A stretch of 64,000 nt of DNA, taken from NCBI GenBank assembly GCA_964016885.1, contig OZ024745.1, positions 18,538,001 to 18,602,000 of the forward strand. The letters are read 5' to 3'. The stretch comes from Eledone cirrhosa (lineage: Eukaryota). Below the pieces are notes generated by a model. It was not told the origin of the DNA. It was given only the letters and a program-made list of their open reading frames with translations, and made no database searches. The position numbers were made by a program, and so were the translations under genes. This document shows positions 28,515 through 63,335 of this stretch, piece by piece (within the stretch, counting starts at the first letter, position 1; every line of letters starts with the position of its first letter).

Positions 28515-28518
<4 letters not shown>
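27220..28518 (+). mobile_element. Internally deleted Penelope-like element (RT N-terminus, GIY-YIG endonuclease, terminal repeat with hammerhead-like motif at 28384-28417)
   Basis: LKDHKSNFP..SIRLINLTKSDLGRLSKRILDRI (~27325-27430); NVGKIFL..LDRHFP..SIFNRHKVKLGYSC; GIY-YIG-like VVYEAVV..SYVGMAEGRYKERFLNH (ORF 27715-28041); CTGACGA..GAAACAATTGTT. Confidence 0.85.
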
Positions 28519-28610
<92 letters not shown>

Positions 28611-28630
28611 TATATCTTTATATATAATAA

Positions 28631-28697
<67 letters not shown>

Positions 28698-28701
<4 letters not shown>

Positions 28702-29187
28702 GTATGAGCATAGGCCAGAGGCGGTGATGGAGAACAGTCAGGTGAAGGTGCTGTGGGATTTTAGGATACAGACGGACAAAAAACTGGAACACAATAGACC
28801 TGACCTGGTGGTTATGGACAAAGAAAAAAGATCGTGCCTGATTGTGGATGTGGCCTGCCCGTTCGACACGAGAGTGCAAGAGAAGGAGAGGGAGAAAATT
28901 AACCGATACCAGGACCTAAAGTGGGAGGTGAAAAGGATTTGGAACTGCCATGAAGTCAAAGTGATCCCGATTGTCATAGGCGCACTGGGGACTATCTCCA
29001 AAGGTTTCCAGGGATGGTTAAAGAAAATCGGCCCCTTCACGCTTTTTGGAACGCTTCAAAAGGCATGCTTGCTTGGAACAGCAAGAACCCTCCGATACGT
29101 CCTGAATATCTGAGGCTGCAGGTAGTGGCTTGATATTCAATCCAACGGACTTTCCAGTTAACCAACATCAATGACTGAGATTCAAGG
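28698..29187 (+). mobile_element. Copy 1: R4/Dong-like RLE LINE family A, 5'-truncated (endonuclease + 3'UTR)
   Basis: RPDLVVMDKEKRSCLIVDVACPFD..KINRYQDL (PD-(D/E)xK-type RLE); 3'UTR ends GAGATTCAAGG-AATAACAATAAC(AAT)n. Confidence 0.9.
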
Positions 29188-29199
29188 AATAACAATAAC

Positions 29200-29244
<45 letters not shown>

Positions 29245-29245
<1 letters not shown>

Positions 29246-31786
29246 TTTTCTTTATTAACCACAAGGGTTCACATAAAGTAGACATTAAGGACAGTACAGG
29301 ACAATACAGGACGGTACAAATGGGCATTTCTGCGTGTAAAAAAACAGAGGTTGAAATAAAATAACAAAGAAAAATTCCCCAATAGGGGGGAGACTTCCAA
29401 GGGACATTTGTGGAGAAAGCCCATTAAAAGACCACAGTGGCCCTGACCACCAGGGCAAGTGCCCTCTCCCAGTTTTCCACCTTTAATTTACAGATATATA
29501 CTCAGAGTAGGCCCATTCACTCGGGCCATTCTTGCTTCTCTCACCCATCTTTCAACAAAATGCTGGGAAGAGAGCACTTCCCTCTCTACTCTGATTTTCC
29601 TTTTCAAATGAAATTTGAAAAAGTCAATCAGAGCATCACCGAAGAGGTAAGTGCTCGTCTTCAGCCCTTTCAAACGTGTCCACCATACTATCTCTTTCGC
29701 CATGGCCACCAGACAGATAAAAACTGCCTGCCCTTCCCGGCTAAAGGAGGAGGGCGGGGCAATCCTCACGATGGACTCAGATGATAGCTGGATCCGTCCC
29801 AAACGCGACAGCAGGTGTTCGACATAAACCAATAAGTCAGCAATTTTCGGACACTGGACGAGTGCGTGCAGGACGGTTTCGTCGCCCTGCGCGCATCTCG
29901 GACATGCCCGGCTGACGGCACCTCCATGCCTGTAGAGTTTATCCCGAACTGGCAAGGCTCCTCGGTAGCACTGCCAGGCCAGAGATTTCTGGAAGTTGTC
30001 CATAGGCCCCGGCCCGAAAGTTCTTCCGAAGAGATTGGCTAGTTGATTTTCGTCGACGCCTAGAGTTTCCCCAAGTACGTCGTCGCTCTTACCCTCCACT
30101 AATCCTCTATAGAACGCCGAGGTGGAGTTTCCACCGATCACATTGCCCGATTGGTCGAGGGCTGTGAGCGCCTGAAGACATTCCAGTCTCCAGGCGCTCC
30201 CTCTCGGTCTTCGCTTGACCCAGGACTGCAGCTCCGTCAAGGAAACGAGCTGGGGAAATACGCGCCTAGCAAACGGCGACCACACCTGATCACCGTCGAG
30301 GAAGAGGTAGAGATGTCGTAGCCTGAGCGCGTGCCTGCGCATCACCAGCCACGGCATGCCCAGCCCTCCACGTAGCGGGTGTTGACAACAGATGGACCGC
30401 CTGACCATCGGAGCACGTCCCTTCCACAAAAAGCGAAAGAGCAAACGCTCCAGCGCAGTCAGGCGAGGCTTAGGACAAGGTACGACGGTCAGGCGGTAGC
30501 AGATGACAGACGCGATGTACGCGTTAGCCACCTCCGCTCGACCTTTCAGGGATAGCTTCCTCTCCGCCCATTTCTGGGTGAGAGAAGCCACCCTGCTCGT
30601 CACCTCGTCCCAGTTTTTGTCCGTCTGGAGGTCCAGACCGAACCAGACCCCTAGCAATTTAACCGGTCCGTCCGTCCAGCGTTCGACGACGCTGTTGGAC
30701 GGCATGGACCTGCCTCTCCAGGTGCCGAGCTGCAGGCCCACTGACTTTTCCTGGTTGATCATTGCTCCTGTCACCGCTTCGTATTCTCTTAGTGTAGTGC
30801 CGATCGCCTCGATGTGTTTGGCGTTCGACACCACTACGGTGACATCGTCCGCATATGCTGACACGGATCTTCCGCATCCTAGTTCGCGCGGGACTCCCCT
30901 CAACGTCTCCAGTTTGTGCAGTAATGGCTCGAGAGTCAATACGTACAAGAGGGACGAGAGGGGACATCCTTGGCGGACCGAGCGCATGATGTTGAACGGT
31001 TCCGACAGGTGACCGTTCACTCTCACCACAGAGCAGATGTCGCTGTGCATGGCAGCGATCCAGCCTCTGAAGACGGGCCCAAAGCCAGCCGCCCTCAGGA
31101 CTGCTGCTAGGTAACGATGGTCGACCCTATCGAAAGCTTTCGACTGATCTAAATTGATCAAGGACCCACCCGTGCCAGGTTCCCTAGCTACCCTCTCTAC
31201 GATGTATCGCATGAGGTGGAGGTTGTCGTGGATGGATCTGTCGGGAATGGCGCATGTCTGCGCCTCTCCCACCAGACCACCAACGACAAGCGCCAACCTC
31301 TTTGCTAGCACCTTGGCCAAAATCTTAAACTCTGTGTTTAGCAGAGTTATGGGCCGGAAATTTTCTATGTTATCCCCCTTGTTCGGATCCTTTCTCAGCA
31401 GTGCCACCGCTCCTCGGCTCACAGAACTGGGAATTCTCCCGTTCTGTTGCCAGTTGCAGTAGACGTCCGCCAAGAGGCCTCCGAACAAGTCTGGCATCTG
31501 TACGTAAAGTTCATAGGGTAGACCATCCAAACCAGGCGATTTACCCCTTGTGCAGCCAGTCATTGCCTCCCTTACTTCAGCGGCTGTTATCGGCTTTTCG
31601 CAACACTTCGCCTCAGTGGCCGAGAGCCGCGGCAGTCCGTCGAGGTAGACACTAAAGTCCATCCCTCTACCCGGCCCACCGCTGACCCCGAACAGCTGAG
31701 CGAAGTGTCGCTGAAAAGCTTCACACATTTGCCCGGGATCGAGTAGCATGCGCCCGTCGTGGTCCACCAAAGATCGTGGTCCACCA

Positions 31787-31787
<1 letters not shown>
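29245..31787 (-). mobile_element. Copy 2: Tx1-like LINE family A, 5'-truncated (RT + C-terminal zinc-finger-like region, ORF open to 29488)
   Basis: SPGLDGLP, FRPITLLN, DQSKAFDRV, QGCPLS, AYADD, GGLG, CPRC..ETVLHALVQC; AATAAA near the 3' end, then (ATT)n. Confidence 0.92.
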
Positions 31788-31846
<59 letters not shown>

Positions 31847-31847
<1 letters not shown>

Positions 31848-34391
31848 TTTTCTTTATTAACCACAAGGGTTCACATAAAGTAGACATTAAGGACAGTTTC
31901 AGGACAATACAGGACGGTACAAATGGGCATTTCTGCGTGTAAAAAAAACAGAGGTTGAAATAAAATAACAAAGAAAAATTCCCCAATAGGGGGGAGACTT
32001 CCAAGGGACATTTGTGGAGAAAGCCCATTAAAAGACCACAGTGGGCCTGACCACCAGGGCAAGTGCCCTCTCCCAGTTTTCCACCTTTAATTTACAGACA
32101 CATACTCAGAGAAGGCCCATTCATTCGGGCCATACTTGCTTCTCTCACCCATCTTTCAACAAAATGCTGGGAAGAGAGCACTTCCCTCTCTACCCTGATT
32201 TTCCTTTTCAAATGAAATTTGAAAAAGTTAATCAGGGCATCACCGAAGAGGTAAGTGCTCGTCTTCAGCCCTTTCAAACGTGTCCACCATACTATCTCTT
32301 TCGCCATGGCCACCAGACAGATAAAAACTGCCTGCCCTTCCAGGCTAAAGGAAGGGGGCGGGGCAATCCTCACGATGGACTCAGCTGATAGCTGGATCCG
32401 TCCTACACGTGACAGCAGGTGTTCGACATAAACCCACAAGTCAGCAATGCTCGGACACTGGACGAGTGCGTGCAGGACGGTTTCGTCGCCCTGCGCGCAT
32501 CTCGGACATGCCTGGCTGACGGCACCTCCATGCCTGTAGAGTTTATCCCGAACTGGCAAAGCTCCTCGGTAGCACTGCCAGGCCAGGGATTTCTGGAAGT
32601 TGTCCATAGGCCCCGGCCCGAAAGTCCTTCCGAAGAGATTGGCTAGTTGATTTTCGTCGACGCCTAGAGTTTCTCCAAGTACGTCGTCGCTCTTCCCCTC
32701 CACTAATCCCCTATAGAACGCCAAGGTGGAGTTTCCACCGATCACATTGCCCGATTGGTCGAGGACTGTGAGCGCCTGAAGACATTCCAGTCTCCAAGCG
32801 CTCCCTCTCGGTCTTCGCTTGACCCAGGACTGCAGCTCCGTCAAGGAGACGAGCTGGGGAAAAACGCGTCTTGCAAACGGCGACCACACCTGATCACCGT
32901 CGAGGAAGAGGTGGAGATGTCGTAGCCTGAGCGCGTGTCTGCGCATCATCAGCCACGGCATGCCCAGCCCTCCACGCAGCGGGTGTTGACAGCAGATGGA
33001 CCGCCTGACCATCGGAGCGCGTCCCTTCCACAAGAAGCGAAAGAGCAAACGCTCCAGCGCAGTCAGGCGGGGCTTAGGACAAGGTACGACGGTCAGGCGG
33101 TAGTAGATGACGGATGCGATGTACGCATTCGCCACCTCCGCTCGACCTTTCAGGGATAGCTTTCTCTCGGCCCATTTCTGGGTGAGAGAAGCCACCCTGC
33201 TCGTCACCTCGTCCCAGTTTTTGTCCGTCTGGAGGTCTGGACCGAACCAGACCCCTAGCAATTTAACCGGTCCGTCCGTCCAGCGCCCGACGACGCTGTT
33301 GGACGGCATGGACCTGCCTCTCCAGGTGCCGAGCTGCAGGCCCACTGACTTTTCCTGGTTGATCATTGCTCCTGTCACCGCTTCGTATTCTCTTAGTGTA
33401 GTGCCGATCGCCTCGATGTGTTTGGCGTTCGACACCACTACGGTGACATCGTCGGCATATGCTGACACGGATCTTCCGCATCCTAGTTCGCGCGGGAACC
33501 CCCCTCAACGTCTCCAGCTTGTGCAGTAATGGCTCGAGAGTCAATACGTACAATAGGGACAAGAGGGGACATCCTTGGCGGACCGAGCGCATGATGTTGA
33601 ACGGTTCCGAAAGGTGACCGTTCACTCTCACCACAGAGCAGATGTCGCTGTGCATGGCAGCGATCCAGCCTCTGAAGACGGGCCCAAAGCCAGCCGCCCT
33701 CAGGACTGCCGCTAGGTAACGATGGTCGACCCTATCGAAAGCTTTCGACTGATCTAAATTGATCAAGGACCCACCCGTGCCAGGTTCCCTAGCTACCCTC
33801 TCTACGATGTATCGCATGAGGTGGAGGTTGTCGTGGATGGATCTGTCGGGAATGGCGCATGTCTGCGCCTCTCCCACCAGACCACCAACGACAAGCGCCA
33901 ACCTCTTTGCTAGCACCTTGGCCAAAATCTTAAACTCTGTGTTTAGCAGAGTTATGGGCCGGAAATTTTCTATGTTATCCCCCTTGTTCGGATCCTTTCT
34001 CAGCAGTGCCACCGCTCCTCGGCTCACAGAACTGGGAATTCTCCCGTTCTGTTGCCAGTTGCAGTAGACGTCCGCCAAGAGGCCTCCGAACAAGTCTGGC
34101 ATCTGTACGTAAAGTTCATAGGGTAGACCATCCAAACCAGGCGATTTACCCCTTGTGCAGCCAGTCATTGCCTCCCTTACTTCAGCGGCTGTTATCGGCT
34201 TTTCGCAACACTTCGCCTCAGTGGCCGAGAGCCGCGGCAGTCCGTCGAGGTAGACACTAAAGTCCATCCCTCTACCCGGCCCACCGCTTACCCCGAACAG
34301 CTGAGCGAAGTGTCGCTGAATAGCTTCACACATTTGCCCGGGATCGAGTAGCATGCGCCCGTCGTGGTCCACCAAAGACCGTGGTCCACCA

Positions 34392-34392
<1 letters not shown>
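31847..34392 (-). mobile_element. Copy 3: Tx1-like family A, 5'-truncated at the same point as copy 2, frameshifted near 33497
   Basis: ORF2 is split (33263-34573 and 32092-33468) and has the same 5' junction as copy 2. Confidence 0.92.
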
Positions 34393-34421
<29 letters not shown>

Positions 34422-34422
<1 letters not shown>

Positions 34423-34720
34423 GGGAGAAAATTAACCGATACCAGGACCTAAAGTGGGAGGTGAAAAGGATTTGGAACTGCCATGAAGTCAAAGTGATCC
34501 CGATTGTCATAGGCGCACTGGGGACTATCTCCAAAGGTTTCCAGGGATGGTTAAAGAAAATCGGCCCCTTCACGCTTTTTGGAACGCTTCAAAAGGCATG
34601 CTTGCTTGGAACGGCAAGAACCCTCCGATACGTCCTGAATATCTGAGGCTGCAGGTAGTGGCTTGATATTCAATCCAACGGACTTTCCAGTTAACCAACA
34701 TCAATGACTGAGATTCAAGG
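34422..34720 (+). mobile_element. Copy 4: Dong-like family A 3' fragment
   Basis: REKINRYQDLKWEV...LRYVLNI* plus the same 3'UTR as copy 1. Confidence 0.9.
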
Positions 34721-34732
34721 AATAACAATAAC

Positions 34733-34765
<33 letters not shown>

Positions 34766-34767
<2 letters not shown>

Positions 34768-36660
34768 AAAGGACCAGTTGCTTATTGATAAGATGGTAAT
34801 GGGGAATTGCAGGAGGAGACACACTGATCTTGCCATGGGATGGATAGACTACAGAAAGGCATTTGACATGGTGCCTCATTCCTGGATCACCAAAAGCCTG
34901 GAGATCTTCAGGGTGGCGGATAACATCAGACAGTTGCTAGGCAGGAGTATGGGGTCCTGGGAGACAGAGCTGACATCAACTGGAGTATCCTTGGGAAGCG
35001 TGAAGATCAAGAGAGGTATCTTCCAGGGAGATAGCCTGTCCCCTCTGTTGTTTGTCCTTGCCCTGATGCCCTTGACCATTATGCTGCGAAAAGTGAGAGC
35101 AGGATACAAGTTGGGAAGGGGAGAGCTTACCATCAATCACCTCCTCTTCATGAACGATCTTAAGCTCTTCGGGAAAAGTGAGAAGGAGTTGGATGTGCTT
35201 GTTGACACTGTCCGTATTTTCAGCAGTGATATATGTATGCAGTTTGGTATTGGTAAATGTGGAGTCATTGTGATGAAGAGGGGTAGGTTGAGCAGAAGTA
35301 ACGGGATCCAGATACCAACAGGTGAGATGATAAAGGAAATTGACTCTGAGGAAGGATAGAAGTATTTGGGCGTTCTGGAGGCTGATGGCATAAACAACAA
35401 AAAAATGAAGGAATTGTTAAGAACTGAATACATTCGGAGAGTAAGGAGCGTATTGAAGTCACATCTGAACAGCAGAAATGCCATAAGCGCAGTAAATTCC
35501 CGAGCTGTGTCTATTATTAGGTACAGTGCGGGAATTCTGAGATGGAATGTTGCTGAACAAAAAGAAATGGATAGGAAGACTAGGAAACTATTGACTATCT
35601 ACAACATGTTCCACAAGAGGAGTGATGTCGATAGACTCTACCTAAGGAGATCTGAGGGTGGAAGAGGTCTTATCAGCATAGAGGACTGTGTTCAGATGGA
35701 GAAAAACAACCTATACAAATACGTGACCTATAGTAAGGAGCCAATGCTCAGAACTGTACTGAAGGAGGGGACAGTAGGCCAGGGGATGTCCAAGGAGGAA
35801 ATAACATCAAGGAGGAAGAGCAGCCTTAAGGGAAAATCCCTTCATAGTACCTTCTTTGAGAAAACTGAATTTAGAGATCCACAGACATGGAACTGGTTGA
35901 GAAGAGGAGACCTCAAAAAGGCTACAGAAGGAATGCTAATGGCTGCGCAGGAGCAGGCCCTCAAAACGAAGTGGTTGAAGCACCATATCTACAAGGAGGA
36001 GGCTAGCCCACTGTGCAGGATCTGTGGAGAGAGAGAGGAGACTGTGGCTCACATTGTGTCCGAGTGTAAACACCTAGCCCAGACCCACTATAAGGCCTGG
36101 AGACACGATGTGATGGGCAGGGTGATTCACTGGCACCTGTGCAAAGTAAACAATCTACCACATTCTGAGAAATGGTATGAGCATAGGCCAGAGGCGGTGA
36201 TGGAGAACAATCAGGTGAAGGTGCAGTGGGATTTTAGGATACAGACGGACAAAAAACTGGAACACAATAGACCTGACCTGGTGGTTGTGGACAAAGAAAA
36301 AAGATCGTGCCTGATTGTGGATGTGGCCTGCCCGTTCGACACGAGAGTGCAAGAGAAGGAGAGGGAGAAAATTAACCGATACCAGGACCTAAAGTGGGAG
36401 GTGAAAAGGATTTGGAACTGCCATGAAGTCAAAGTGATCCCGATTGTCATAGGCGCACTGGGGACTATCTCCAAAAGTTTCCAGGGATGGTTAAAGAAAA
36501 TCGGCCCCTTCACGCTTTTTGGAACGCTTCAAAAGGCATGCTTGCTTGGAACAGCAAGAACCCTCCGATACGTCCTGAATATCTGAGGCTGCAGGTAGTG
36601 GCTTGATATTCAATCCAACGGACTTTCCAGTTAACCAACATCAATGACTGAGATTCAAGG
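34766..36660 (+). mobile_element. Copy 5: Dong-like family A, 5'-truncated within RT, inactivated
   Basis: WIDYRKAFDMV, GIFQGDSLSP, LFMNDLK (catalytic D to N), in-frame TAG at 35357-35359, CCHC CRICGEREETVAHIVSEC, RHD and RLE. Confidence 0.92.
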
Positions 36661-36672
36661 AATAACAATAAC

Positions 36673-36728
<56 letters not shown>

Positions 36729-39483
36729 GATCAACATGTGACATAGACATGCTGATAGAAACAATCAAGCAAAAAGTGTCGGCCAAAGCTGCTCGTATAA
36801 GGCGCTTTGAAAAACGATCTAGATTCTATAAGGACAATAATATGTTCAAAAACAACCAAAGAAACTTCTACAGAAAAATTGGTAAGTCAACAATAACTGC
36901 TAAATCAATACCACCCAAGGAGGAAGTGCAAGAATTCTGGGAAAAGATCTGGGTCGAAGAAAAAGTTCATAACATACATGCCCCATGGATAGACAGACAA
37001 ATGAAAGAAACAGCTCACCTTGAAGAACAAACATGGGAAAATATAACAGTTGAACAGCTGCGCTTGGCTCTAAGAAAAACCAGCAAATGGAAATCCCCAG
37101 GAAAAGACAAAATACAAAACTTTTGGATAAATGCCTTCACAGAGTCTCATGAGCTGTTAGCCCAACTTTACAATGAAATAGTTAAGGAGCCAGAAAAGAT
37201 ACCATCATGGCTAGTTAACGGCATTACATTCCTGCTACCGAAGAATGATGAGACAAACAATCCCAAAAATTACAGACCGATAACCTGCTTGACCACAATG
37301 TATAAAATTTTAACATCAGTCCTAACTGAATACACATATGACCACCTGATAACAAATGACCTATTTCCCATTGAGCAGAAAGGGTGTAAACGAGGCTCAT
37401 ATGGCTGTAAGGATCAGCTTCTGGTTAACAAAATGATACTGGAAGATTGTCATAATAGACACAAAAATCTATCGATTGCTTGGATAGATTATAAAAAAGC
37501 ATTTGATAGTTTGCCACACAGTTGGATTGAAAAATGTTTAGAGATTTTCAAAATATCCCCCGTTATCAGGAGGTTTTTGTCATTCAGTATGAGGACATGG
37601 AGAACGACACTCCTTTTGAATAGTGAAACAAAATCACTGGAAGCTGGAGAAGTTAACATTAATTGTGGAATTTTTCAGGGTGACTCTTTATCACCGCTTT
37701 TATTCTGCATCGCACTTATACCATTAAGTAAAATGCTCAATGAAACAAAACATGGATATAGAGTCTATGACAAAACCATTAATCACCTGTTCTACATGGA
37801 TGACCTGAAACTATTTGCAAAAAATGATGAACAATTGCAAGGGCTATTATCCACTGTGAAGCAGTTCAGTGATGACATTAAAATGGAGTTTGGACTGGAT
37901 AAATGCGCCAAAGCAACGTTCACCAGAGGAAAGCTGCTGAAGAGTTCAGACATTAATCTTGATCGGGGGAACGTGATAAGAGAGCTTGATCAAGAACAAA
38001 CTTACAAATATCTAGGTGTTTGTGAAGGAGACGGAATCAAGCACTCGACAATGAGGGAAAGGATAAGGAAGGAATGTTACCGCAGAGTCAGAGCAATCTT
38101 AAGAACGGAATTGAATGCAAGGAATAGGATCGATGCCATAAACACGCTTGCCATACCAGTAGTAACCTACAGTTACAATGTCATCAACTGGTCAAGCACA
38201 GAGATCCGTAGGCTCGATACAAAAATCCGAAAATTCTTAACCATGCACAGAATGCATCACCCTAAGGCAGACATAGATAGAATATATCTCCCTAGGAAAG
38301 AAGGAGGACGTGGGTTAATCCAGTTAGACATTGCGTTGAAAACTGCAACAATTGGATTATCCACATATCTAAGGGAATCACATGATTGGATGATCAAACT
38401 CGTTTTGAAACACGAAAGCACCAAAAGATCATATTCCATTACAAAAGATGCACAAAGATACAGTAATGGACTACAAATTTCAGAAGCCCCATTTACTGCT
38501 GAAATGGAAAACACAGAAAAAGCAAAGCAGGTAAAAGTAACTGCAAAGAAAGAACTGCTACAGAAACTGGCTAAGAAATGGCAAGAAAAGCCTCTGTATG
38601 GAAAATACCCAGAGCGAGCTAACAATCCTGATGTTGACAAAACTTTAACCCATCAGTGGCTGGCATCCTCTGGACTGAAATCGGAGACTGAAGGACTGAT
38701 TATATCCGCACAAGATCAGTGTCTGCCAACAAAAAATTACCAAGCCAACATAATAAAAAATGGGTGCAGCCCATTATGCCGTGTATGCAAAAAACAACCA
38801 GAGACCATTGACCATATAATTTCAATGTGCAGTCCTATAGCTCCAACCGAATACCTAAACAGGCATGACAGAGCTGCACAATACATACATTGGATAATGT
38901 GCAAGCATTTTGACCTGCCCCATCAAAAGAATTGGTGGGAGCATCAACCACCTCCCATACTTGAAAAAGATCACATCTCAATCTTGTGGAACTTTAGCAT
39001 CCAAACAGACCGAAAAATAGATGCAAATAGACCTGATATAATATTGAAGGACTTTCAAAGGAGGGTATGCCTGCTAATTGATATGTCTGTTCCAATAGAC
39101 AAGAATGTATCTATAAAAACATTTGAAAAATTGAGCAAGTATAAGGACCTGGAGATAGAAATTGGAAAAATGTGGAAATTGAGAACTAAAACAATACCAG
39201 TGGTTGTAGGCGCTCTGGGAATGATACCTAAGGGGTCTAACGACTACTTATCGCAAATCCCAGGAAACCCGCGTATAGGAGAAATACAAAAGATAGTACT
39301 AATGGGAACTGCCCATATACTAAGGAAGATCCTGTCAATATAAGTACATCACAAGTCTAAACACTAAGGATGCATGTGTGAATATGTGTGTTCTTTCTTG
39401 AACATGGCGGACCTTGTTGTCTCTTGAGGTCACTGGTTGTGACTTGGTGATAACTCGTATAAACATAAAGCAAGATAAATGCA
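36729..39483 (+). mobile_element. Copy 6: Dong-like family B (distinct AT-rich family), 5'-truncated, with RT-CCHC-RLE in one open frame to 39343
   Basis: KSPGKDKI, NYRPITCL, WIDYKKAFDS, GIFQGDSLSP, FYMDDLK, CRVCKKQPETIDHIISMC, RHD, RPDIILKD..LIDMSVP..KLSKYKDL; 3'UTR differs from family A. Confidence 0.93.
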
Positions 39484-39519
<36 letters not shown>

Positions 39520-39521
<2 letters not shown>

Positions 39522-39711
39522 TCTCAAAAAGTTTCCAGAGATGGTTAAAGAAAATTGGCCCCGCCCCGCTTTTTGGTACACTTCAAAAGGCATGCTTGCT
39601 GGGAACAGCAAGTACCCTCCGATACGTCCTGAATATCTGAGGCTGCTGGTAGTGGCTTGATATTCATTTCAACAAACTTTCCAGTTAACTAACATCAATG
39701 ACTGAGACTCA
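39520..39711 (+). mobile_element. Copy 7: very short 3' fragment of Dong-like subfamily A'
   Basis: Matches the end of copy 13 (ATTGGCCCCGCC, CAAACTTTCC, GACTGAGACTCAA). Confidence 0.85.
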
Positions 39712-39747
<36 letters not shown>

Positions 39748-39749
<2 letters not shown>

Positions 39750-42484: not shown

Positions 42485-42532
42485 AATAATAATAATAATA
42501 ATAATGATAATAATAATAAAAATAATAATAAT

Positions 42533-42850
42533 GAGAGTGCAAGAGAAGGAGAGGGAGAAAATTAACCGATACCAGGACCTAAAGTGGGAGGTGAAAAGGA
42601 TTTGGAAGTGCCATGAAGTCAAAGTGATCCCGATTGTCATAGGCGCACTGGGGACTATCTCCAAAGGTTTCCAGGGATGGTTAAAGAAAATCGGCCCCTT
42701 CACGCTTTTTGGAACGCTTCAAAAGGCATGCTTGCTTGGAACAGCAAGAACCCTCCGATACGTCCTGAATATCTGAGGCTGCAGGTGGTGGCTTGATATT
42801 CAATCCAACGGACTTTCCAGTTAACCAACATCAATGACTGAGATTCAAGG
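42533..42850 (+). mobile_element. Copy 9: Dong-like family A 3' fragment
   Basis: RVQEKEREKINRYQDL...LRYVLNI* plus the family A 3'UTR. Confidence 0.9.
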
Positions 42851-42889
42851 AATAACAATAACAATAATAATTATAATAATAATAATAAT

Positions 42890-48800: not shown

Positions 48801-48869
<69 letters not shown>

Positions 48870-48871
<2 letters not shown>

Positions 48872-54782: not shown

Positions 54783-54850
<68 letters not shown>

Positions 54851-55110
54851 TTTCTTTATTAACCACAAGGGTTTACATAAAGTAGACATTAAGGACAGTG
54901 CAGGACAATGCAGGACGGTACAAATGGGCATTTCTGCGTGTAAAAAAACAAAAACAGAGGATGTAACAAAAATAACAATGAAAATAACAATGAAAAATTC
55001 CCCAATAGGGGGGAGACTTCGGAGGGACATTTGTGGAGAAAGCCCAGTAAAAAGCCACAATGACCCTGACCACCAAGGCAAGTGCCCTCTCCCAGTTTTC
55101 CACCTTTAGT

Positions 55111-58100
55111 TTACAGATATATACTCAGAGTCGGCCCATTCACTCGGGCCATTCTTGCTTCTCTCACCCATCTTTCAACAAAATGCTGGGAAGAGAGCAC
55201 TTCCTTCTCTACTCTGATTTTCCTTTTCAAATGAAATTTGAAAAAGTCAATCAGAGCATCACCGAAGAGGTAAGTGCTCGTTTTCAGCCCTTTCAAACGT
55301 GTCCACCATACTATCTCTTTCGCCATGGCCACCAGACAGATAAAAACTGCCTGCCCTTCCCGGCTAAAGGAGGAGGGCGGGGCAATCCTCACGATAGACT
55401 CAGATGATAGCTGGATCCGTCCTAAACGCGACAGCAGGTGTTCGACATAAACCCACAAGTCAGCAATTTTCGGACACTGGACGAGTGCGTGCAGGACGGT
55501 TTCGTCGCCCTGCGCGCATCTCGGACATGCCCGGCTGACGGCACCTCCATGCCTGTAGAGTTTATCCCGAACTGGCAAGGCTCCTCGGTAGCACTGCCAG
55601 GCCAGAGATTTCTGGAAGTTGTCCATAGGCCCTGGCCCGAAAGTTCTTCCGAAGAGATTGGCTAGTTGATTTTCGTCGACGCCTAGAGTTTCCCCAAGTA
55701 CGTCGTCGCTCTTCCCCTCCACTAATCCTCTATAGAACGCCGAGGTGGAGTTTCCACCGATCACATTGCCCGATTGGTCGAGGGCTGTGAGCGCCTGAAG
55801 ACATTCCAGTCTCCAGGCGCTCCCTCTCGGTCTTCGCTTGACCCAGGACTGCAGCTCCGTCAAGGAAACGAGCTGGGGAAAAACGCGTCTAGCAAACGGC
55901 GACCACACCTGATCACCGTCGAGGAAGAGGTGGAGATGTCGTAGCCTGAGCGCGTGCCTGCGCATCATCAGCCACGGCATGCCCAGCCCTCCACGTAGCG
56001 GGTGTTGACAACAGATGGACCGCCTGACCATCGGAGCACGTCCCTTCCACAAAAAGCGAAAGAGCAAACGCTCCAGCGCAGTCAGGCGAGGCTTAGGACA
56101 AGGTACGACGGTTAGGCGGTAGCAGATGACAGACGCGATGTACGCGTTAGCCACCTCCGCTCGACCTTTCAGGGATAGCTTCCTCTCCGCCCATTTCTGG
56201 GTGAGAGAAGCCACCCTGCTCGTCACCTCGTCCCAGTTTTTGTCCGTCTGGAGGTCCGGACCGAACCAGACCCCTAGCAATTTAACCGGTCCGTCCGTCC
56301 AGCGCCCGACGACGCTGTTGGACGGCATGGACCTGCCTCTCCAGGTGCCGAGCTGCAGGCCCACTGACTTTTCCTGGTTGATCATTGCTCCTGTCACCGC
56401 TTCGTATTCTCTTAGTGTAGTGCCGATCGCCTCGATGTGTTTGGCGTTCGACACCACTACGGTGACATCGTCCGCATATGCTGACACGGATCTTCCGCAT
56501 CCTAGTTCGCGCGGGACTCCCCTCAACGTCTCCAGTTTGTGCAGTAATGGCTCGAGAGTCAATACGTACAAGAGGGACGAGAGGGGACATCCTTGGCGGA
56601 CCGAGCGCATGATGTTGAACGGTTCCGACAGGTGACCGTTCACTCTCACCACAGAGCAGATGTCGCTGTGCATGGCAGCGATCCAGCCTCTGAAGACGGG
56701 CCCAAAGCCAGCCGCCCTCAGGACTGCCGCTAGGTAACGATGGTCGACCCTATCGAAAGCTTTCGACTGATCTAAATTGATCAAGGACCCACCCGTGCCA
56801 GGTTCCCTAGCTACCCTCTCTACGATGTATCGCATGAGGTGGAGGTTGTCGTGGATGGATCTGTCGGGAATGGCGCATGTCTGCGCCTCTCCCACCAGAC
56901 CACCAACGACAAGCGCCAACCTCTTTGCTAGCACCTTGGCCAAAATCTTAAACTCTGTGTTTAGCAGAGTTATGGGCCGGAAATTGTCTATGTTATCCCC
57001 CTTGTTCGGATCCTTTCTCAGCAGTGCCACCGCTCCTCGGCTCACAGAACTGGGAATTCTCCCGTTCTGTTGCCAGTTGCAGTAGACGTCCGCCAAGAGG
57101 CCTCCGAACAAGTCTGGCATCTGTACGTAAAGTTCATAGGGCAGACCATCCAAACCAGGCGATTTACCCCTTGTGCAGCCAGTCATTGCCTCCCGTACTT
57201 CAGCGGCTGTTATCGGCTTTTCGCAACACTTCGCCTCAGTGGCCGAGAGCCGCGGCAGTCCGTCGAGGTAGACACTAAAGTCCATCCCTCTACCCGGCCC
57301 CCCGCTGCCCCCGAACAGCTGAGCGAAGTGTCGCTGAAAAGCTTCACACATTTGCCCGGGATCGAGTAGCATGCGCCCGTCGTGGTCCACCAAAGACCGG
57401 ATCGTGGCTTTGTTGCCACGACGCGCCTCCGCCACTCGGGCCCATTGAACGGCTTTCGTCCCCTCGTGTCTGAGAGCACGCACCCTAGCTCTGACAACGC
57501 AGCCTTCGTGCTTTGCATTGAAGAATTGGTCAAGGGCCAATTTCGCCGCAAGCACGTCGGTCGCAATGCCTTTGCTAAGCGCCTCGTCTAATTTTCTAAC
57601 TAGTTCTCCCTCTGCTCTATTTTTCTCTATTGCTAAAGCCTTACTAAACCTAATCGATTCTATTCTAATCGCTCTTTTCAGAGCAAACCACCACTTGTTG
57701 TTGACGATGGCCCCCGTCAACGCCCGCTTAACTAGTTCGCTAATCCGGTCTCTGTAGGCCTTGCGCGCTGGTAAGGACGCGTTTAGCTTCCAGTAGCCGG
57801 GTCCTCGTCTATGAAGCCTATCTAAGTCAAGCACACAGGTCACGAATTTGTGGTCCGTGTAGCTGACTATCTTGAATTGTGGACAGCCTATGCTAGACCT
57901 ATCTATTTCCCTACAAAATACTCTATCTAGATATGATCTGGATGACCCTATGCGGTTTGTCCAAGTCCACATTGGCACATTCGGGAAATCCAATCGGTAC
58001 CTGTCAGACAGTTCAAAACGCCTGAGCAGGTTGGTGAGGCTCTTGCACCCTCCACCCCTATCCGCTAATCCCACACAGTCCCAGCGTGCATCTAAGATCC

Positions 58101-58530
58101 CGTTCCAGTCGCCCACTAACACTAAAGAGCGGGACGTTCCAAGAAAGGTCTCCAGACGCCGGAAGAAATCAGGCCGCCCTGCTCCTGTCGGGGCATAGAC
58201 GGCCACTAGCCTGAAAGCTTGCCCGTCTCCGCTGGTCACGTCCAGCACCACCAGCTTACCCTCTGGGTCCAGGAAGATGGCCCGTATGGCGAGATCCAAA
58301 CCTCTCCGAAAAAGCACAGCAACTCCTCCACCCGATCCAGGACGGCTGGGAGATGCGTACACATCGTAGCCGCCGAAGATCGGTGCGAAGGCCCGTGCTT
58401 CGGAGATTCTGGTCTCGCTGATGGCCACTACATCTATGTTTAGTGACCTGAGGTCGTTGAGCAGGTGACCCTGCTTCCATGACGACCCCAAGCCACGCGC
58501 ATTTATGCTGCCTATTCTGAGTGAGGTCAT
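55111..58530 (-). CDS. ORF2, 1139 aa: APE endonuclease + reverse transcriptase + C-terminal zinc-finger-like domain (Tx1/L1 group)
   Basis: SINARG, AISET, AVYAP, LVGDWN, SYLDRVF, YTDH, GPGYWKLN, then RT motifs through AYADD and CPRC..HALVQC. Confidence 0.95.
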   Translation of the reverse strand: MTSLRIGSINARGLGSSWKQGHLLNDLRSLNIDVVAISETRISEARAFAPIFGGYDVYASPSRPGSGGGVAVLFRRGLDLAIRAIFLDPEGKLVVLDVTSGDGQAFRLVAVYAPTGAGRPDFFRRLETFLGTSRSLVLVGDWNGILDARWDCVGLADRGGGCKSLTNLLRRFELSDRYRLDFPNVPMWTWTNRIGSSRSYLDRVFCREIDRSSIGCPQFKIVSYTDHKFVTCVLDLDRLHRRGPGYWKLNASLPARKAYRDRISELVKRALTGAIVNNKWWFALKRAIRIESIRFSKALAIEKNRAEGELVRKLDEALSKGIATDVLAAKLALDQFFNAKHEGCVVRARVRALRHEGTKAVQWARVAEARRGNKATIRSLVDHDGRMLLDPGQMCEAFQRHFAQLFGGSGGPGRGMDFSVYLDGLPRLSATEAKCCEKPITAAEVREAMTGCTRGKSPGLDGLPYELYVQMPDLFGGLLADVYCNWQQNGRIPSSVSRGAVALLRKDPNKGDNIDNFRPITLLNTEFKILAKVLAKRLALVVGGLVGEAQTCAIPDRSIHDNLHLMRYIVERVAREPGTGGSLINLDQSKAFDRVDHRYLAAVLRAAGFGPVFRGWIAAMHSDICSVVRVNGHLSEPFNIMRSVRQGCPLSSLLYVLTLEPLLHKLETLRGVPRELGCGRSVSAYADDVTVVVSNAKHIEAIGTTLREYEAVTGAMINQEKSVGLQLGTWRGRSMPSNSVVGRWTDGPVKLLGVWFGPDLQTDKNWDEVTSRVASLTQKWAERKLSLKGRAEVANAYIASVICYRLTVVPCPKPRLTALERLLFRFLWKGRAPMVRRSICCQHPLRGGLGMPWLMMRRHALRLRHLHLFLDGDQVWSPFARRVFPQLVSLTELQSWVKRRPRGSAWRLECLQALTALDQSGNVIGGNSTSAFYRGLVEGKSDDVLGETLGVDENQLANLFGRTFGPGPMDNFQKSLAWQCYRGALPVRDKLYRHGGAVSRACPRCAQGDETVLHALVQCPKIADLWVYVEHLLSRLGRIQLSSESIVRIAPPSSFSREGQAVFICLVAMAKEIVWWTRLKGLKTSTYLFGDALIDFFKFHLKRKIRVEKEVLSSQHFVERWVREARMARVNGPTLSIYL

Positions 58531-58565
58531 GTTTAAAATAGAGTGGAAAAGATGGGAAAGACCAC

Positions 58566-60659
58566 TTACCGTACTTTTGGTAGAGGAGGGATGGTTTTTA
58601 CATCCCTTTTCACTTGATCGTCTGGTGAAGGGACCGTTGAATCGTCCCTTCGGCTGGTCGTCGGCTCTTCTAAGAGAATGTCTGAATATACTCTTCGATT
58701 AATGGTTCCTCCTAGGTCCCTGAAATCACCAACTGCGTTGGGGAATTTCGTTTTAATGTTTGTGTATTGTTTCTGTGCTATTTTTAGCAGTCTTATGTTA
58801 GTTGGCGTTTTGATTGGTGCTGGTATTATGTAGTCCTGTTGTGAAATGTCTGTGTGTTCAATTATGTAAGTCATTAGTTTCTTGTTGTGTGTGTTTATTG
58901 CCGTGCATTTGTTTTTCTGGGGGTGGGGTGTGGTTCTGCTAGTTTCTTGTCGTTGTTGCTGGGTGTGTGTGTTTTGTTGTTGTGTTTGCGATGTTGGTGC
59001 TTGTGGTGGTGGTGTTGAAGGTGTTGTTGGCGGTGGGGTTGTCGCCGGTGGTGATGGTGGTGCTGGTGTGGGTGGTGATGGTGTTGGTGGTGTTGCTGCT
59101 GTGGGTCTCTTTGCAGTAGACTTTACCCTTTTCTCATTTCTTTCCTCCCTTTTCAAAGGCGACGATGCGCTGCTTCTGCGTTTGTGCCTTCTTGCGACCT
59201 TTTGCCATCCCTCTCCCACCTCACACTCCATGTCTGATTCTGTAAGGTCGGGGAGGGGTACCAGCTCCACTCTTTCACTTGTTGTTGTTGGTGATGTTTG
59301 CACTGGAGTCTCTGTTGCAGCTGCATTTGGTATTGCTGTTGTTGTTGTTAATATTTCCACTGCTGCTGCTGTCTTTGATTTCCGTGGAGTGGGTATGGGT
59401 GCCACGGACCTATCGTTCCTGGTTGCCGCTTGTCCTGTTGCTGGTAGCCGTGGAGCCGGATTCGGAAGGAGGGGGGTTTTCTCCTTTCTCAGGGTCTTCT
59501 CGTTGCAGAAGGCCCTGAGGTGAGTCTTCGATCCACAGCGAAAGCATTTCGGGCGTTTGCCCTCAACACTTATGGGCAGTTGAGTGCCGTTATCGAAGTC
59601 TATCACATCCGGGATAGCTTCGATGCACTCCTGGTTGGTTTGGATTAGCATCTCAATGGAGGAGCCGACCCAATCTTCTCTTACTTTTTTCTGTACTTGC
59701 AGTACAGTTGTTTTGTCCTCGATTCCGACGAGGACAGACGCGGCCAGCCAAGAAGGGGTCATTCCGGGGGGGACGTGGGTCAGTTTGACCCTCACAATTT
59801 TTTGCCCGCAGTAGGAGGGCACCAACACCATTTCCTCGCTCCTTAGGGTCACTACTGATTGGGCCTTTGCCTCCTGGGGTGTGGCAAAAAGTACGTCTAC
59901 GGTGGCGTATTTTTTGCCTCGGGTGATGTGCGTTTTCCTCTGCCACACAGACCCCAAGGCTTTTTGTATTTGGGCCTCTGTGGCTCTTTCCACCCTACGG
60001 GATTTTGTACTTACTGTACGGTACGTGACCGTACAGTGCTCTTGGGTTTCGAAAAATTTGTTCGCTGCCTTGCAGATTGCTCGGTGTCCGTTCTTTGTCA
60101 CCATCTTCTTCGCTTCCTCTAATTCCTCATTTGTTATGAGGATTGTTTCCAAGTTTTTCGCAATACCTGCAAATGAGATTGGTTTTTCTCTGCTGTTGTT
60201 GTTGTCGTCAGAGCTGCTGGTACTTTTGTTGCTGCAGGTACTACGACTACTGCCTCCGCCGCTGTTGCTGTGGTTGTTGTTGGTGTTGCTGCTGCTAATG
60301 CTGTTGTTGTTTATGCTGCTGGTGATGCTGTTGCGGCTGCTACTGTTGTTTTCATTGTCACTGTTGCTGTTGTTATTACGGCTGCTACTGCTATTATTCC
60401 TGACGTCAGACGAATGAACTGGGTTTTCGTATTTCCCGCACACCTGTTTCGTCGCTGTCGTCGTCGTCGTGGAGAAACCTTGCACGCTTTGCACGAGACT
60501 TTTCTTTTCTTTCGTCGCTTGCGAAAGAGAAGGGAGGGAGAGAGACACATTTAAAGAAGGGAGGGAGAGAGACAATCTTCTCTCTGCTGTAGTGATGATT
60601 GAGGAAGAAGAAGACGGAATGAGTGGGAGTGACGTATGAAATTTCTTTTTGGTAGCCAT
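58566..60659 (-). CDS. ORF1 type 2, gag-like nucleic-acid-binding protein with CCHC knuckle
   Basis: First ATG at 60659 (MATKKKF); S/N-rich N-terminus; RPKCFRCGSKTHLRAFC; core homologous to ORF1 type 1 (CTV.YRT...KSRRVERA.E.QIQKALG.VW.RKTHI.RG.KY.TVDV). Confidence 0.88.
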   Translation of the reverse strand: MATKKKFHTSLPLIPSSSSSIITTAERRLSLSLPSLNVSLSLPSLSQATKEKKSLVQSVQGFSTTTTTATKQVCGKYENPVHSSDVRNNSSSSRNNNSNSDNENNSSSRNSITSSINNNSISSSNTNNNHSNSGGGSSRSTCSNKSTSSSDDNNNSREKPISFAGIAKNLETILITNEELEEAKKMVTKNGHRAICKAANKFFETQEHCTVTYRTVSTKSRRVERATEAQIQKALGSVWQRKTHITRGKKYATVDVLFATPQEAKAQSVVTLRSEEMVLVPSYCGQKIVRVKLTHVPPGMTPSWLAASVLVGIEDKTTVLQVQKKVREDWVGSSIEMLIQTNQECIEAIPDVIDFDNGTQLPISVEGKRPKCFRCGSKTHLRAFCNEKTLRKEKTPLLPNPAPRLPATGQAATRNDRSVAPIPTPRKSKTAAAVEILTTTTAIPNAAATETPVQTSPTTTSERVELVPLPDLTESDMECEVGEGWQKVARRHKRRSSASSPLKREERNEKRVKSTAKRPTAATPPTPSPPTPAPPSPPATTPPPTTPSTPPPQAPTSQTQQQNTHTQQQRQETSRTTPHPQKNKCTAINTHNKKLMTYIIEHTDISQQDYIIPAPIKTPTNIRLLKIAQKQYTNIKTKFPNAVGDFRDLGGTINRRVYSDILLEEPTTSRRDDSTVPSPDDQVKRDVKTIPPLPKVR

Positions 60660-60872
60660 GTTTTTTTGTTTAAAATGAAATTTTGGGTACAAAACCCCAA
60701 TAACTGGTTATTTAACCCCGAAGGGCCAAATAACGGACAGAAAGACCCCTCTCACGAGGAGGAGGGTGTCTTTATCAACAATTTGGTTCAAGTTTTAAAC
60801 AATTTACAATTGTTTTAACGGTTAAAAATTACTATACCTTACAGAGCCGAGCCTCCGTCAACCATGGCATTC

Positions 60873-60911
<39 letters not shown>

Positions 60912-62150
60912 CTGAATACATTCGGAGAGTAAGGAGCGTGTTAAAGTCACATCTGAACAGTAGGAATGCCATAAGTGCAGTAAATTCTCAAGCTGTGTCT
61001 ATTATTAGGCACAGTGCGAGAATTCTGAGATGGAATGTTGCTGAACAAAAAGAAATGGATAGGAAGACTAGGAAGCTATTGACTATCTACAACATGTTCC
61101 ACAAGAGTAGTGATGTCGATAGACTCTACTTAAGGATATCTGAAGGTGGAAGAGGTCTTATCAGCATAGAGGACTGTGTTCAGATGGAGAAATACAACCT
61201 ACACAAATACGTGACTGATAGTAAGGAGCCAATGATCAGAACTGTACTGAAGGAGAGGACAATAGACCAGGGGATGTCCAGGGAGGAAATAACAACAAGG
61301 AGAAAGAGCAGCCTTCAGGAAAAATCCCTTCATAGTACCTTCTTTGAGAAAACTGAATTCAGAGATCCACAGACATGGAACTGGTTGAAAAGAGGAGACC
61401 TTAAAAAGGCTACAGAAGGAATGTGACTGGCTGCGCAAGAGCAGGCCCTCAAAACGAAGTGGTTGAAACACCACATTTACAAGGAGGAGGCTAGCCCACT
61501 GTGCAGGATCTGTGGAGAGAGAGAGGAGACTGTGGCTCACATTGTATCCGAGTGTAAACACCTAGCCCAGACTCACTATAAGGGCTGGAGACATGATGTG
61601 ATGGGCAGGGTGATCCACAGGCACCTATGCAAAGTAAACAATTTACCACATTCTGAGAAGTGGTATGAGCATAAGCCAGAGGCGGTGATAGAAAACGATC
61701 AGGTGAAGGTGTTGTGGGATTTTAGGATACAGACGGACAAGAAACTGGAACACAATAGACCTGACCTGGTGGTTTTGGACAAAGAAAAAAGATCGTGCCT
61801 AATGGTGGATGTGGCCTGCCCATTCGACACGAGAGTGCAAGAGAAGGAGAGGGAGAAAATTAACAGATACCAGGACTTAAAGTGGGAGGTAAAAAGGATT
61901 TGGAACTGCCATGATGTCAAAGTGATCCCGATTGTCATAGGCGCACTGGGGACTATCTCAAAAAGTTTCCAGGGATGGTTAAAGAAAATTGGCCCCGCCA
62001 CGCTTTTTGGAACGCTTCAAAAGGCATGCTTGCTGGGAACAGCAAGAACCCTCCGATACGTCCTGAATATCTGAGGCTGCCGGTAGTGGCTTGATATTCA
62101 TCACAACAAACTTTCCAATTAACTAACATCAATGACTGAGACTCAAAGAG
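60912..62150 (+). mobile_element. Copy 13: Dong-like subfamily A', 5'-truncated, with in-frame stop
   Basis: ORFs 60938-61426 and 61463-62074 are collinear with copy 5; TGA at 61424-61426. Confidence 0.9.
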
Positions 62151-62157
62151 TAATAAC

Positions 62158-62240
<83 letters not shown>

Positions 62241-62243
<3 letters not shown>

Positions 62244-63074
62244 GGGAAAACCCCTTCATAGTACCTTCTTTGAGAAAACTGAATTTAGAGATCCACAGAC
62301 ATGGAACTGGTTGAGAAGAGGAGACCTCAAAAAGGCTACAGAAGGAATGCTAATGGCTGCGCAGGAGCAGGCCCTCAAAACGAAGTGGTTGAAGCACCAT
62401 ATCTACAAGGAGGAGGCCAGCCCACTGTGCAGGATCTGTGGAGAGAGAGAGGAGACTGTGGCTCACATTGTGTCCGAGTGTAAACACCTAGCCCAGACCC
62501 ACTATAAGGGCTGGAGACACGATGTGATGGGCAGGGTGATCCACTGGCACCTGTGCAAAGTAAACAATCTACCACATTCTGAGAAATGGTATGAGCATAG
62601 GCCAGAGGCGGTGATGGAGAACAATCAGGTGAAGGTGCTGTGGGATTTTAGGATACAGACGGACAAAAAACTGGAACACAATAGACCTGACCTGGTGGTT
62701 GTGGACAAAGAAAAAAGATCGTGCCTGATTGTGGATGTGGCCTGCCCGTTCGACACGAGAGTGCAAGAGAAGGAGAGGGAGAAAATTAACCGATACCAGG
62801 ACCTAAAGTGGGAGGTGAAAAGGATTTGGAACTGCCATGAAGTCAAAGTGATCCCGATTGTCATAGGCGCACTGGGGACTATCTCCAAAAGTTTCCAGGG
62901 ATGGTTAAAGAAAATCGGCCCCTTCACGCTTTTTGGAACGCTTCAAAAGGCATGCTTGCTTGGAACAGCAAGAACCCTCCGATACGTCCTGAATATCTGA
63001 GGCTGCAGGTAGTGGCTTGATATTCAATCCAACGGACTTTCCAGTTAACCAACATCAATGACTGAGATTCAAGG
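62241..63074 (+). mobile_element. Copy 14: Dong-like family A, 5'-truncated (CCHC + RLE + 3'UTR)
   Basis: ORF 62311-63000 is nearly identical to the C-terminus of copy 5. Confidence 0.92.
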
Positions 63075-63086
63075 AATAACAATAAC

Positions 63087-63123
<37 letters not shown>

Positions 63124-63288
63124 TTTATACTTATATATACACTATATATAGTTATAAACAGGAAAGGTCAGTAATTCATTACCAACTTAATACCAGTAAG
63201 AAAAAAGCTCAATGTAAATACATCAGATTTTTTACAGAGCCGAAATATAAATTACAGAATAATCAAATCTATGTTCAAAACATTTTAT

Positions 63289-63335
63289 TGCTGACAATCG
63301 TTTCTTCCAAACCTTCGTTTGGAATTATCGGAGCA
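63289..63335 (-). ncRNA. Degenerate hammerhead-like motif in a probable PLE terminal repeat
   Basis: TGCT-CCGATAA-TTCCAAAC gaag GTTTGGAA-GAAA-CGATTG-TC-AGCA, related to the 2050-2098 motif. Confidence 0.45.

Follow-up and report, generated by a model that had tools for sequence, protein, structure and literature searches.

Opposite-polarity LINE arrays in (AAT)n microsatellites of Eledone cirrhosa and the possible copying of 5' parts from neighbouring copies

How can two unrelated classes of retrotransposon pile up in one microsatellite, each in a single orientation and the two in opposite directions, and how are their tandem copies completed? These questions are raised by a locus in the genome of Eledone cirrhosa. 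The window analysed is a stretch of 64,000 nucleotides (C5:18538001-18602000, contig OZ024745.1) of a 3.0-Gb assembly (GCA_964016885.1), and it is free of any N. At 28632..63123 of this window, 15 (AAT)n tracts, all reading AAT on the + strand, delimit 14 copies of long interspersed elements (LINEs) of the non-LTR type (lacking long terminal repeats). Eight copies of a class with a restriction-like endonuclease (RLE; families A, A' and B) lie on the + strand, and six copies of a class with an apurinic/apyrimidinic endonuclease (APE; families A and B) lie on the - strand. It was confirmed that both classes share (AAT)n targeting with fixed opposite polarity across the genome. For the array as a whole we lean, with modest confidence, towards a reading in which RLE and APE elements accumulate with opposite polarity and some APE copies are finished by copying the 5' part of their downstream neighbour.

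An earlier note on this DNA had described 14 copies in a row with only (AAT)n between them and none inside another. The same arrangement was seen when segments and tracts were mapped: all 14 segments are collinear with their own family, without nesting and without any match to the flanks. The strict opposite polarity claimed there, with eight RLE copies on + and six APE copies on -, was borne out by family matches and Pfam domains; by simple arithmetic, the chance of such strict class polarity is about 2 x 0.5^14 = 1e-4.

Target choice and polarity across the genome

By exact matching, 3,995 RLE-A 3' ends, 1,141 ends of one RLE 5' type and 9,314 APE-A 3' ends were counted, together with 21,665 starts of tracts with at least nine AAT units. 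APE-A occurs with two 5' variants, whose exact full-length 5' ends number 1,564 and 447 genome-wide; an in-register (ATT)3 was found before 1,529 and 421 of these, respectively (1,950/2,011 together). AAT stands before 28 of 30 RLE 5' ends and ATT before none. In unbiased samples of 3' flanks, AAT was present at all 30 RLE-A ends, and ATT at 27 of 30 APE-A ends with AAT at none. A census of junctions covered the DNA fetched to that point, which had partly been picked for AAT content. It gave 67 ATT, no AAT and 6 other sequences at APE 3' ends, 85 AAT, no ATT and 3 others at RLE 3' ends, and 74 AAT, no ATT and 23 others at RLE 5' ends; ATT stood at the 5' end of all 44 full-length APE copies. 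Kojima's criterion for target specificity is more than 20% of flanks (PMC4494074), and the APE family lies above this value with 1,950 of 2,011 full-length 5' ends and with 10 of 21 truncated ones.

A check of flanks and orientation relative to (AAT)n had also been proposed; most full-length copies proved to be flanked by the repeat and their orientation to be fixed, and truncated APE copies were flanked far less often. The latter speak against strict targeting as part of our reading. Their 5' ends gave 10 ATT, 1 AAT and 10 other sequences in the census, and 4 of 13 had ATT at the 5' junction in a separate sample; since truncated APE copies are flanked by ATT less often, part of the ATT at full-length 5' ends could be derived from the RNA, and targeting is less strict than the full-length counts would imply. 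The one AAT was found in an array (C1:24.834-24.843 Mb) that is rearranged and contains inverted APE pieces; this is the only exception to the polarity among the tract pairs and junctions examined.

Genome-wide, RLE copies read AAT and APE copies ATT at both of their ends, and the fixed opposite orientation is likely due to each class priming on a different strand of the repeat. In target-primed reverse transcription the first nick falls on the strand complementary to the element (PMC2881922); RLE would therefore first nick the ATT strand and APE the AAT strand. The APE nick probably lies immediately 3' of TAAT and in most cases falls on a T^A step, as in L1, whose cut site is TTTT/AA (PMC1950540), because the duplicated target starts at ATTA at imperfect sites that were entered by APE copies and by a short interspersed element (SINE). 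This abundant SINE has an end much like that of the APE family, occupies the same tracts in APE orientation and is represented by 10 partial matches in the window (4912-25141); its insertions inside APE copies carry duplications of 16-18 nt starting at ATTA, and it probably uses the APE enzymes. We take it to be of the Nin-domain type.

Polarity could instead be set mainly by pairing between the end of the RNA and the repeat, both strands being nicked and only the strand complementary to the tail (AAU in RLE, AUU in APE) acting as primer. RLE-A copies bear family-specific tail variants, for example AATAAC-AATAAC, and part of the tail is therefore RNA-borne, as such pairing would have it. SART1 and R1Bm are helped by annealing between the 3' end and the target (PMC7265360), and the register with ATT is exact at full-length APE 5' ends, which is often not so at truncated ones. 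We nevertheless regard this explanation as unlikely, since APE copies and the SINE enter, in the same sense, sites that offer just ATTA with 0-2 pairable triplets, and since swapping the endonuclease domain moves specificity between SART1 and TRAS1 (PMC7265360). Imperfect sites also qualify the claim of the earlier note that APE copies carry (ATT)n tails: the ATT ends are there, but at such sites elsewhere the tail can shrink to 0-2 triplets, and target DNA makes up much of it. Tail pairing is compatible with copying from a neighbour, and the two are not exclusive.

Renewal of targets and the spread of arrays

The tracts of the window array are located at 28632-28700, 29200-29244, 31787-31846, 34392-34422, 34733-34766, 36673-36728, 39484-39519 and 39712-39747 in its first half and at 42485-42532, 42863-42889, 48801-48869, 54783-54848, 60873-60911, 62158-62243 and 63087-63123 in its second half; two of them (42485-42532 and 42863-42889) are imperfect. 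They amount to 739 nt of repeat, or about 246 triplets. It had been argued that each insertion renews the target, and the tract lengths uphold this: one ordinary tract split 14 times would leave about one triplet for each, whereas the 15 tracts have a mean of 16 triplets. Tracts without an adjoining LINE have 9-19 units (nine being required by the sample), which is similar to the mean of the array tracts. Each insertion leaves a full-length tract on both sides, by which the number of targets grows.

Long tracts were found to cluster, 41 of 99 gaps being no longer than 15 kb against 5.3 expected, and 40 of the 41 close pairs of tracts lie on the same strand as compared with 22 of 44 distant pairs. 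A LINE end touches 22 of 30 sampled tracts. Young full-length APE copies number more than 1,500, about one sixth of them (17/99 gaps) lying within 7 kb of the next, and mixed arrays with the same polarity were present in most of the regions fetched, which had been chosen for clustering; in array sizes, hot spots of insertion would look like self-amplification. The idea that this locus is an exceptional landing pad was accordingly given up: such arrays are common in the genome, and both opposite polarity (PMC7265360) and self-renewing targets (PMC5932611) are in print. An APE-only array of 10 copies (C1:441,086,000-441,143,000) has the same imperfect spacer at nearly every junction; its most diverged copies stand at the downstream end, and its upstream-most copy ends inside open reading frame (ORF) 1 at an ATT-like site.

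It has to be asked whether the array, or its near-identical neighbours, might be an artefact of assembly, either a mis-join through AAT or two haplotypes placed in tandem. No read in the short-read and contig data used spans the array, and two contig sets and two restriction-site-associated DNA sequencing (RAD-seq) runs gave only multi-copy pile-ups at the left junction. Such an artefact is very improbable, given that the window has no N, that the copies have distinct single-nucleotide polymorphisms (SNPs) and that duplications end exactly at ATT. A 10-copy array elsewhere, with nine full-length copies, differs at all eight adjacent pairs, which would be impossible from two haplotypes. The two flanks of the window array, moreover, match an order of (TA)n, (AAT)n and repeat that is found at loci without a LINE at the tract.

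The left flank (28518..28631, unstranded) is a (TA)n microsatellite with a short TA-rich stretch. The right flank (63124..63920, unstranded) belongs to a dispersed repeat of about 800 nt, other copies of which begin with (AAT)n, often directly after (TA)n. Its start has 51 exact matches in the genome, and TA-rich sequence directly precedes the tract at 14 of 29 other loci read. This repeat supplies ready-made AAT targets, and its copy in the right flank was probably the seed of the target tract of the array. At several loci the repeat carries an inverted copy of its own part, and seven copies on C3:89.3-90.3 Mb have one upstream flank in common. A second dispersed, microsatellite-rich repeat holds an internal AAT tract; its empty and LINE-filled (C1:441.09 Mb) copies provide a paralogous empty-site comparison. 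Further upstream in the window, a frame of 147 aa (27598-28038, +) gave no Pfam hit; it resembles an RT-linker/GIY-YIG fragment of Penelope type.

Shared 5' parts of tandem APE copies

Within the window, six APE copies allow the relation between neighbours to be followed. S2 (29245..31786, -) is a 5'-truncated APE-A copy with a 12-nt duplication at its 5' end, and S3 (31847..34391, -) is an APE-A mosaic with a 5' part as in S2, a patch as in S10 and S11, and a 3' part from another source of older type. S10 (42890..48800, -) is a full-length APE-A copy with the 5' variant A11, broken frames and a 3' part of older type. The next copy, S11 (48870..54782, -), is a full-length APE-A mosaic whose first ~3,980 nt are as in S10 and whose 3' ~1.4 kb are of young type; the broken frames are common to both. 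S12 (54849..60872, -) is full-length APE-A with the 5' variant A12, has both frames open and carries AATAAA 8 nt before its 3' end. The sixth copy, S8 (39748..42484, -), is a 5'-truncated member of APE-B, which is 77% identical to APE-A in nucleotides and 74% in amino acids.

S2 and S3 were found to have their first base and their 12-nt duplication in common. Their 5' junction occurs at three places in the genome, namely in S2, in S3 and as an internal deletion in another copy, and their first ~680 nt have two common SNPs that are absent from 75-76 dispersed copies; thereafter the two are divergent. S10 and S11 differ by one substitution and one 8-nt indel in their first 3,980 nt. Over 1,521 nt they differ at one position, the nearest of 30 dispersed copies differing at 18 and pairs of dispersed copies at 7 or more. 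In both S11/S10 and S3/S2, the mosaic member is the upstream copy in the sense of the element. The 14 copies had been regarded as independent insertions, which cannot be maintained for two of them, as these carry the private 5' part of a neighbour.

Two simple crossovers were considered for the mosaics. A crossover of S10 and S12 as the origin of S11 is unproven: S11 lacks the one private SNP of S12 and has three further substitutions or indels in its 3' part. A crossover of S2 and S10 for S3 was rejected beyond the short patch, the middle region of S3 showing 9 differences to dispersed copies and 20 to S10.

Similar pairs were sought in other arrays. The first test was restricted to A12 copies that are full-length and have 97% identity or more; 51 such copies gave 30 adjacent pairs in 12 arrays, which were compared with 1,193 cross-array pairs, the threshold being the 95th percentile of run length. 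A long identical run occurred at the 5' end in 14 of the 30 pairs and at the 3' end in 3. As a ratio, the differences stood at 0.27 in the first 500 nt and climbed to ~0.9 in the 3' half, and 27 of 46 array-private shared SNPs fell in the first kb, singletons being flat. In the nine arrays apart from the three that suggested the idea, 5 of 15 pairs had the run at the 5' end and 1 of 15 at the 3' end. In 13 of 14 cases, the nearest match to the upstream copy past the switch point, alone or in a tie, was a copy from another array. The upstream copy of many tandem APE pairs bears the private 5' sequence and the spacer of the downstream copy. Duplicated spacers flank the new copy on either side: imperfect ones of 24-127 nt, one of 232 nt with a 165-nt APE fragment and one of 885 nt with a whole RLE-B copy (808 nt). 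At some APE 3' ends the join with the target has just 0-2 ATT, in keeping with RNA priming.

These observations would be accounted for if the nascent cDNA pairs with a homologous resident copy downstream, or with the next ATT tract, and copies DNA back to the nick. Copying back in this way would give target duplications of tens of bases to ~5 kb, and a precise second nick would be unneeded. The long identities that result would then undergo ordinary unequal crossover, the products of which are seen in three arrays; unequal crossover accounts for at least three copies. More tentatively, and at a level of confidence that falls short of even, we suggest that completion of the 5' junction by homology is routine for this (ATT)n-targeting L1-group element, which would generate kb-scale target duplications, inherit promoter and ORF1 from its neighbour and let the array grow at its 5' side.

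Several observations weigh against copying from the neighbour. The upstream 3' part was younger in 9 of 14 cases, older in 4 and tied in 1. A fresh, unselected set comprised 17 junctions, of which 14 were kept and 3 dropped for one copy being truncated or of an older family; here the effect was much weaker, with 5' runs in 5 of 14 pairs and 3' runs in 3 of 14. Two middle copies in this set are unequal-crossover hybrids with the 5' part of the downstream and the 3' part of the upstream copy, and one more was present in the arrays of the first set; over 6 kb, another two pairs show no more than 5 and 10 differences. Sharing of 5' parts is absent from a further two tandem pairs, which are of A11 type. 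In the combined sets 5' runs occur in 19 of 44 pairs and 3' runs in 6 of 44, with discordant pairs at 15 to 2 (one-sided p 0.001 if independent), and pairs within one array are not independent. A private patch of S3, including a frameshift, is common to the non-adjacent S10 and S11, and DNA exchange therefore occurs within the array; the patch may have arisen by conversion or by serial template switching.

In view of these points, it could be held that the polarity is as described and the insertions are independent, the shared 5' parts and spacers stemming only from later unequal crossover and gene conversion. The three clear crossover hybrids, the near-identical whole pairs and the patch common to S3 and S10/S11 agree with this. 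The product of cDNA completion would equally arise if a resident copy crossed over with a new upstream copy carried by the homologue, and R1 arrays are known to grow by unequal exchange (PMC5932611). Recombination alone, however, predicts as many 3'-only as 5'-only pairs, because insertion takes place on either side (the upstream copy being younger in 15 pairs, older in 10 and tied in 5); the discordant pairs stand at 15 to 2, though at just 3 to 1 in the fresh set. Furthermore, a copy at C1:55.44 Mb has an 885-bp duplication and is yet no hybrid of its neighbours. RLE neighbours should recombine as well, but a common 5' end was found in none of 10 adjacent same-family RLE pairs, most RLE copies being short. 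Recombination as the sole cause is thus rather doubtful, and the copying of 5' parts from downstream neighbours by some APE copies is the reading retained here.

Element identity, known systems and meaning

The RLE copies, all on the + strand, are mostly short. S1 (28701..29199) is 5'-truncated with RLE domain and 3' untranslated region (UTR); S4 (34423..34732, 310 nt), S9 (42533..42862, 330 nt) and S14 (62244..63086, 843 nt) are of family A, as are S1 and S5 (34767..36672, 1.9 kb), the last with a partial reverse transcriptase (RT), CCHC, RLE and an internal stop. These five are 99% alike. S7 (39520..39711, 192 nt) and S13 (60912..62157, 1.25 kb) form A', at 90-94% to A. S6 (36729..39483, 2.75 kb) represents RLE-B and has an open frame of 871 aa with RT (YMDD), CCHC and the RLE motif; it gives no DNA match to A, and the full-length proteins of A and B have 39% identity over 950 aa. 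The 5' ends of full-length RLE-A and RLE-B copies are nevertheless almost the same, and there are several other long variants of the 5' UTR.

The Pfam domain RVT_1 is followed by CCHC in both A and B, and the motif RPD..D..K..KY was found by pattern in B; in RLE-A, the RPD motif was read by eye. The best solved relatives are R2 proteins. Full-length RLE-A has a single ORF of 1,141 aa without an N-terminal C2H2/CCHH motif. At the N-terminus of the RLE proteins, a conserved, helix-like W-T-x-E block has two invariant Trp in 49 aligned rows; none of 21 proteins gave a Myb/SANT hit in Pfam.

Among the APE copies, Pfam identified RT, APE and zf-RVT, the APE domain being confined to the full-length S10-S12; S2, S3 and S8 are cut before it. 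S12 ORF1 (58566..60659, -) encodes 697 aa with one CX2CX4HX4C knuckle, and ORF2 (55111..58530, -) 1,139 aa with APE, RT with YADD, and zf-RVT. The 5' UTR and ORF1 of S12 differ from those of S10 and S11 (52% amino acid identity over 244 aa), and both ORF1 variants carry one such zinc knuckle. A comparison of window 58566-60872 with 52580-54782 indicates a swap of ORF1 and promoter, as the variants share ORF2 (95-97% in nucleotides) and differ in 5' UTR and ORF1. A CCHC zinc knuckle in ORF1 is a feature of the Tx1 clade. ORF2 matches human L1 ORF2p with E 1.5e-52 over residues 5-854 and R2 with E 1e-21 over RT only; RLE and APE classes likewise match each other over RT only (26% over 278 aa). 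One short match of the APE protein was to a gene model of Octopus sinensis. In metagenomes, the relatives of this family are distant, and an AAT/ATT tract of at least four units was present at none of 80 such loci. Named clade references were absent from the homologue, cluster and atlas search results for RLE and APE proteins. Judged by anatomy, the RLE half of the array is very probably Dong (R4 clade), and a placement of RLE with Dong and of APE with Tx1 fits what the elements encode.

Dong elements have RT and a C-terminal RLE, no N-terminal zinc fingers and a (TAA)n target (PMC7998251, PMC3812793, PMC13282606); they are known in Bombyx, Anopheles, Biomphalaria and an ostracod, with (TAA)n targeting in insects, molluscs and cnidarians. 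A diverged N-terminal SANT/Myb-like domain has been given as a feature of the clade (PMC7998251). Among molluscs, R4-Dong is almost confined to cephalopods (PMC10294476). In Octopus vulgaris, both Dong-R4 and L1-Tx1 have been recently active, the annotation paper making no use of the word 'target'. The elements described here share the RT/RLE anatomy and the (TAA)n target. They differ in falling into two deep lineages (39% in amino acids), and their tracts also house an unrelated APE family and a SINE.

SART1 and TRAS1 both belong to the R1 clade. In Bombyx mori they insert in opposite directions into (TTAGG)n (PMC7265360), which resembles the present case in that one simple repeat receives elements in opposite orientation. 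There, both partners are APE elements and the target is a telomeric repeat, whereas here one partner is an RLE element and the targets are thousands of interstitial (AAT)n microsatellites. Microsatellite-specific APE elements of the Tx1 clade include Kibi in (TC)n, Koshi in (TTC)n and crocodilian elements in (TTCC)n/(TTTC)n, all of them pyrimidine repeats, unlike the (ATT)n target here; tandem insertions around a duplicated target are on record for SINEU-3 (PMC4494074). In Drosophila, McGurk and Barbash (2018) reported that insertion keeps the target and makes a new one, the tandems then expanding by unequal exchange (PMC5932611). Distinct 5' truncations mark independent insertions in those tandems and duplications are short (33 nt for R1) (PMC5932611); in the arrays described here, by contrast, neighbours share private 5' parts and duplications reach kb and may include another element.

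A closer parallel to the copying proposed here comes from human L1. Gilbert and colleagues reportedly described, in 2005, chimeric L1 insertions completed on endogenous L1, as rare events in cultured cells; in these, recombination of the cDNA with a resident copy close by is reported to duplicate the stretch that separates them. In E. cirrhosa this would be a common germline route, used in about one third to one half of tandem pairs. An (ATT)n-specific Tx1/L1 family, or co-targeting by RLE and APE elements, was not found in the literature searched, insofar as its text was available; Repbase, Kojima & Fujiwara 2004 and figure labels (PMC4494074 Fig. 3) could hold one. No account of neighbour-copied LINE tandems was found in that literature either. 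Precedents exist for every ingredient. What looks undescribed in the literature searched is their combination, together with the (ATT)n-specific L1-group family and the frequent copying of 5' parts from neighbours.

The pattern of shared 5' parts can be tallied across the genome and reconstructed in a plasmid assay. With an (ATT)n-specific L1-group endonuclease and a (TAA)n-specific RLE, a compact pair is at hand with which to ask if strand choice lies with the enzyme or with the RNA tail. At thousands of loci the arrays create long direct repeats that are nearly identical. This has consequences for assembly and for AAT microsatellite markers in this animal group, and mosaic copies mislead age estimates of transposable elements. 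If completion by homology is indeed routine, the APE family, together with the Dong-like elements on the opposite strand, would turn thousands of microsatellites into growing, recombination-prone LINE arrays, and these would constitute a natural, high-count record of how the second end is formed in non-LTR insertion.

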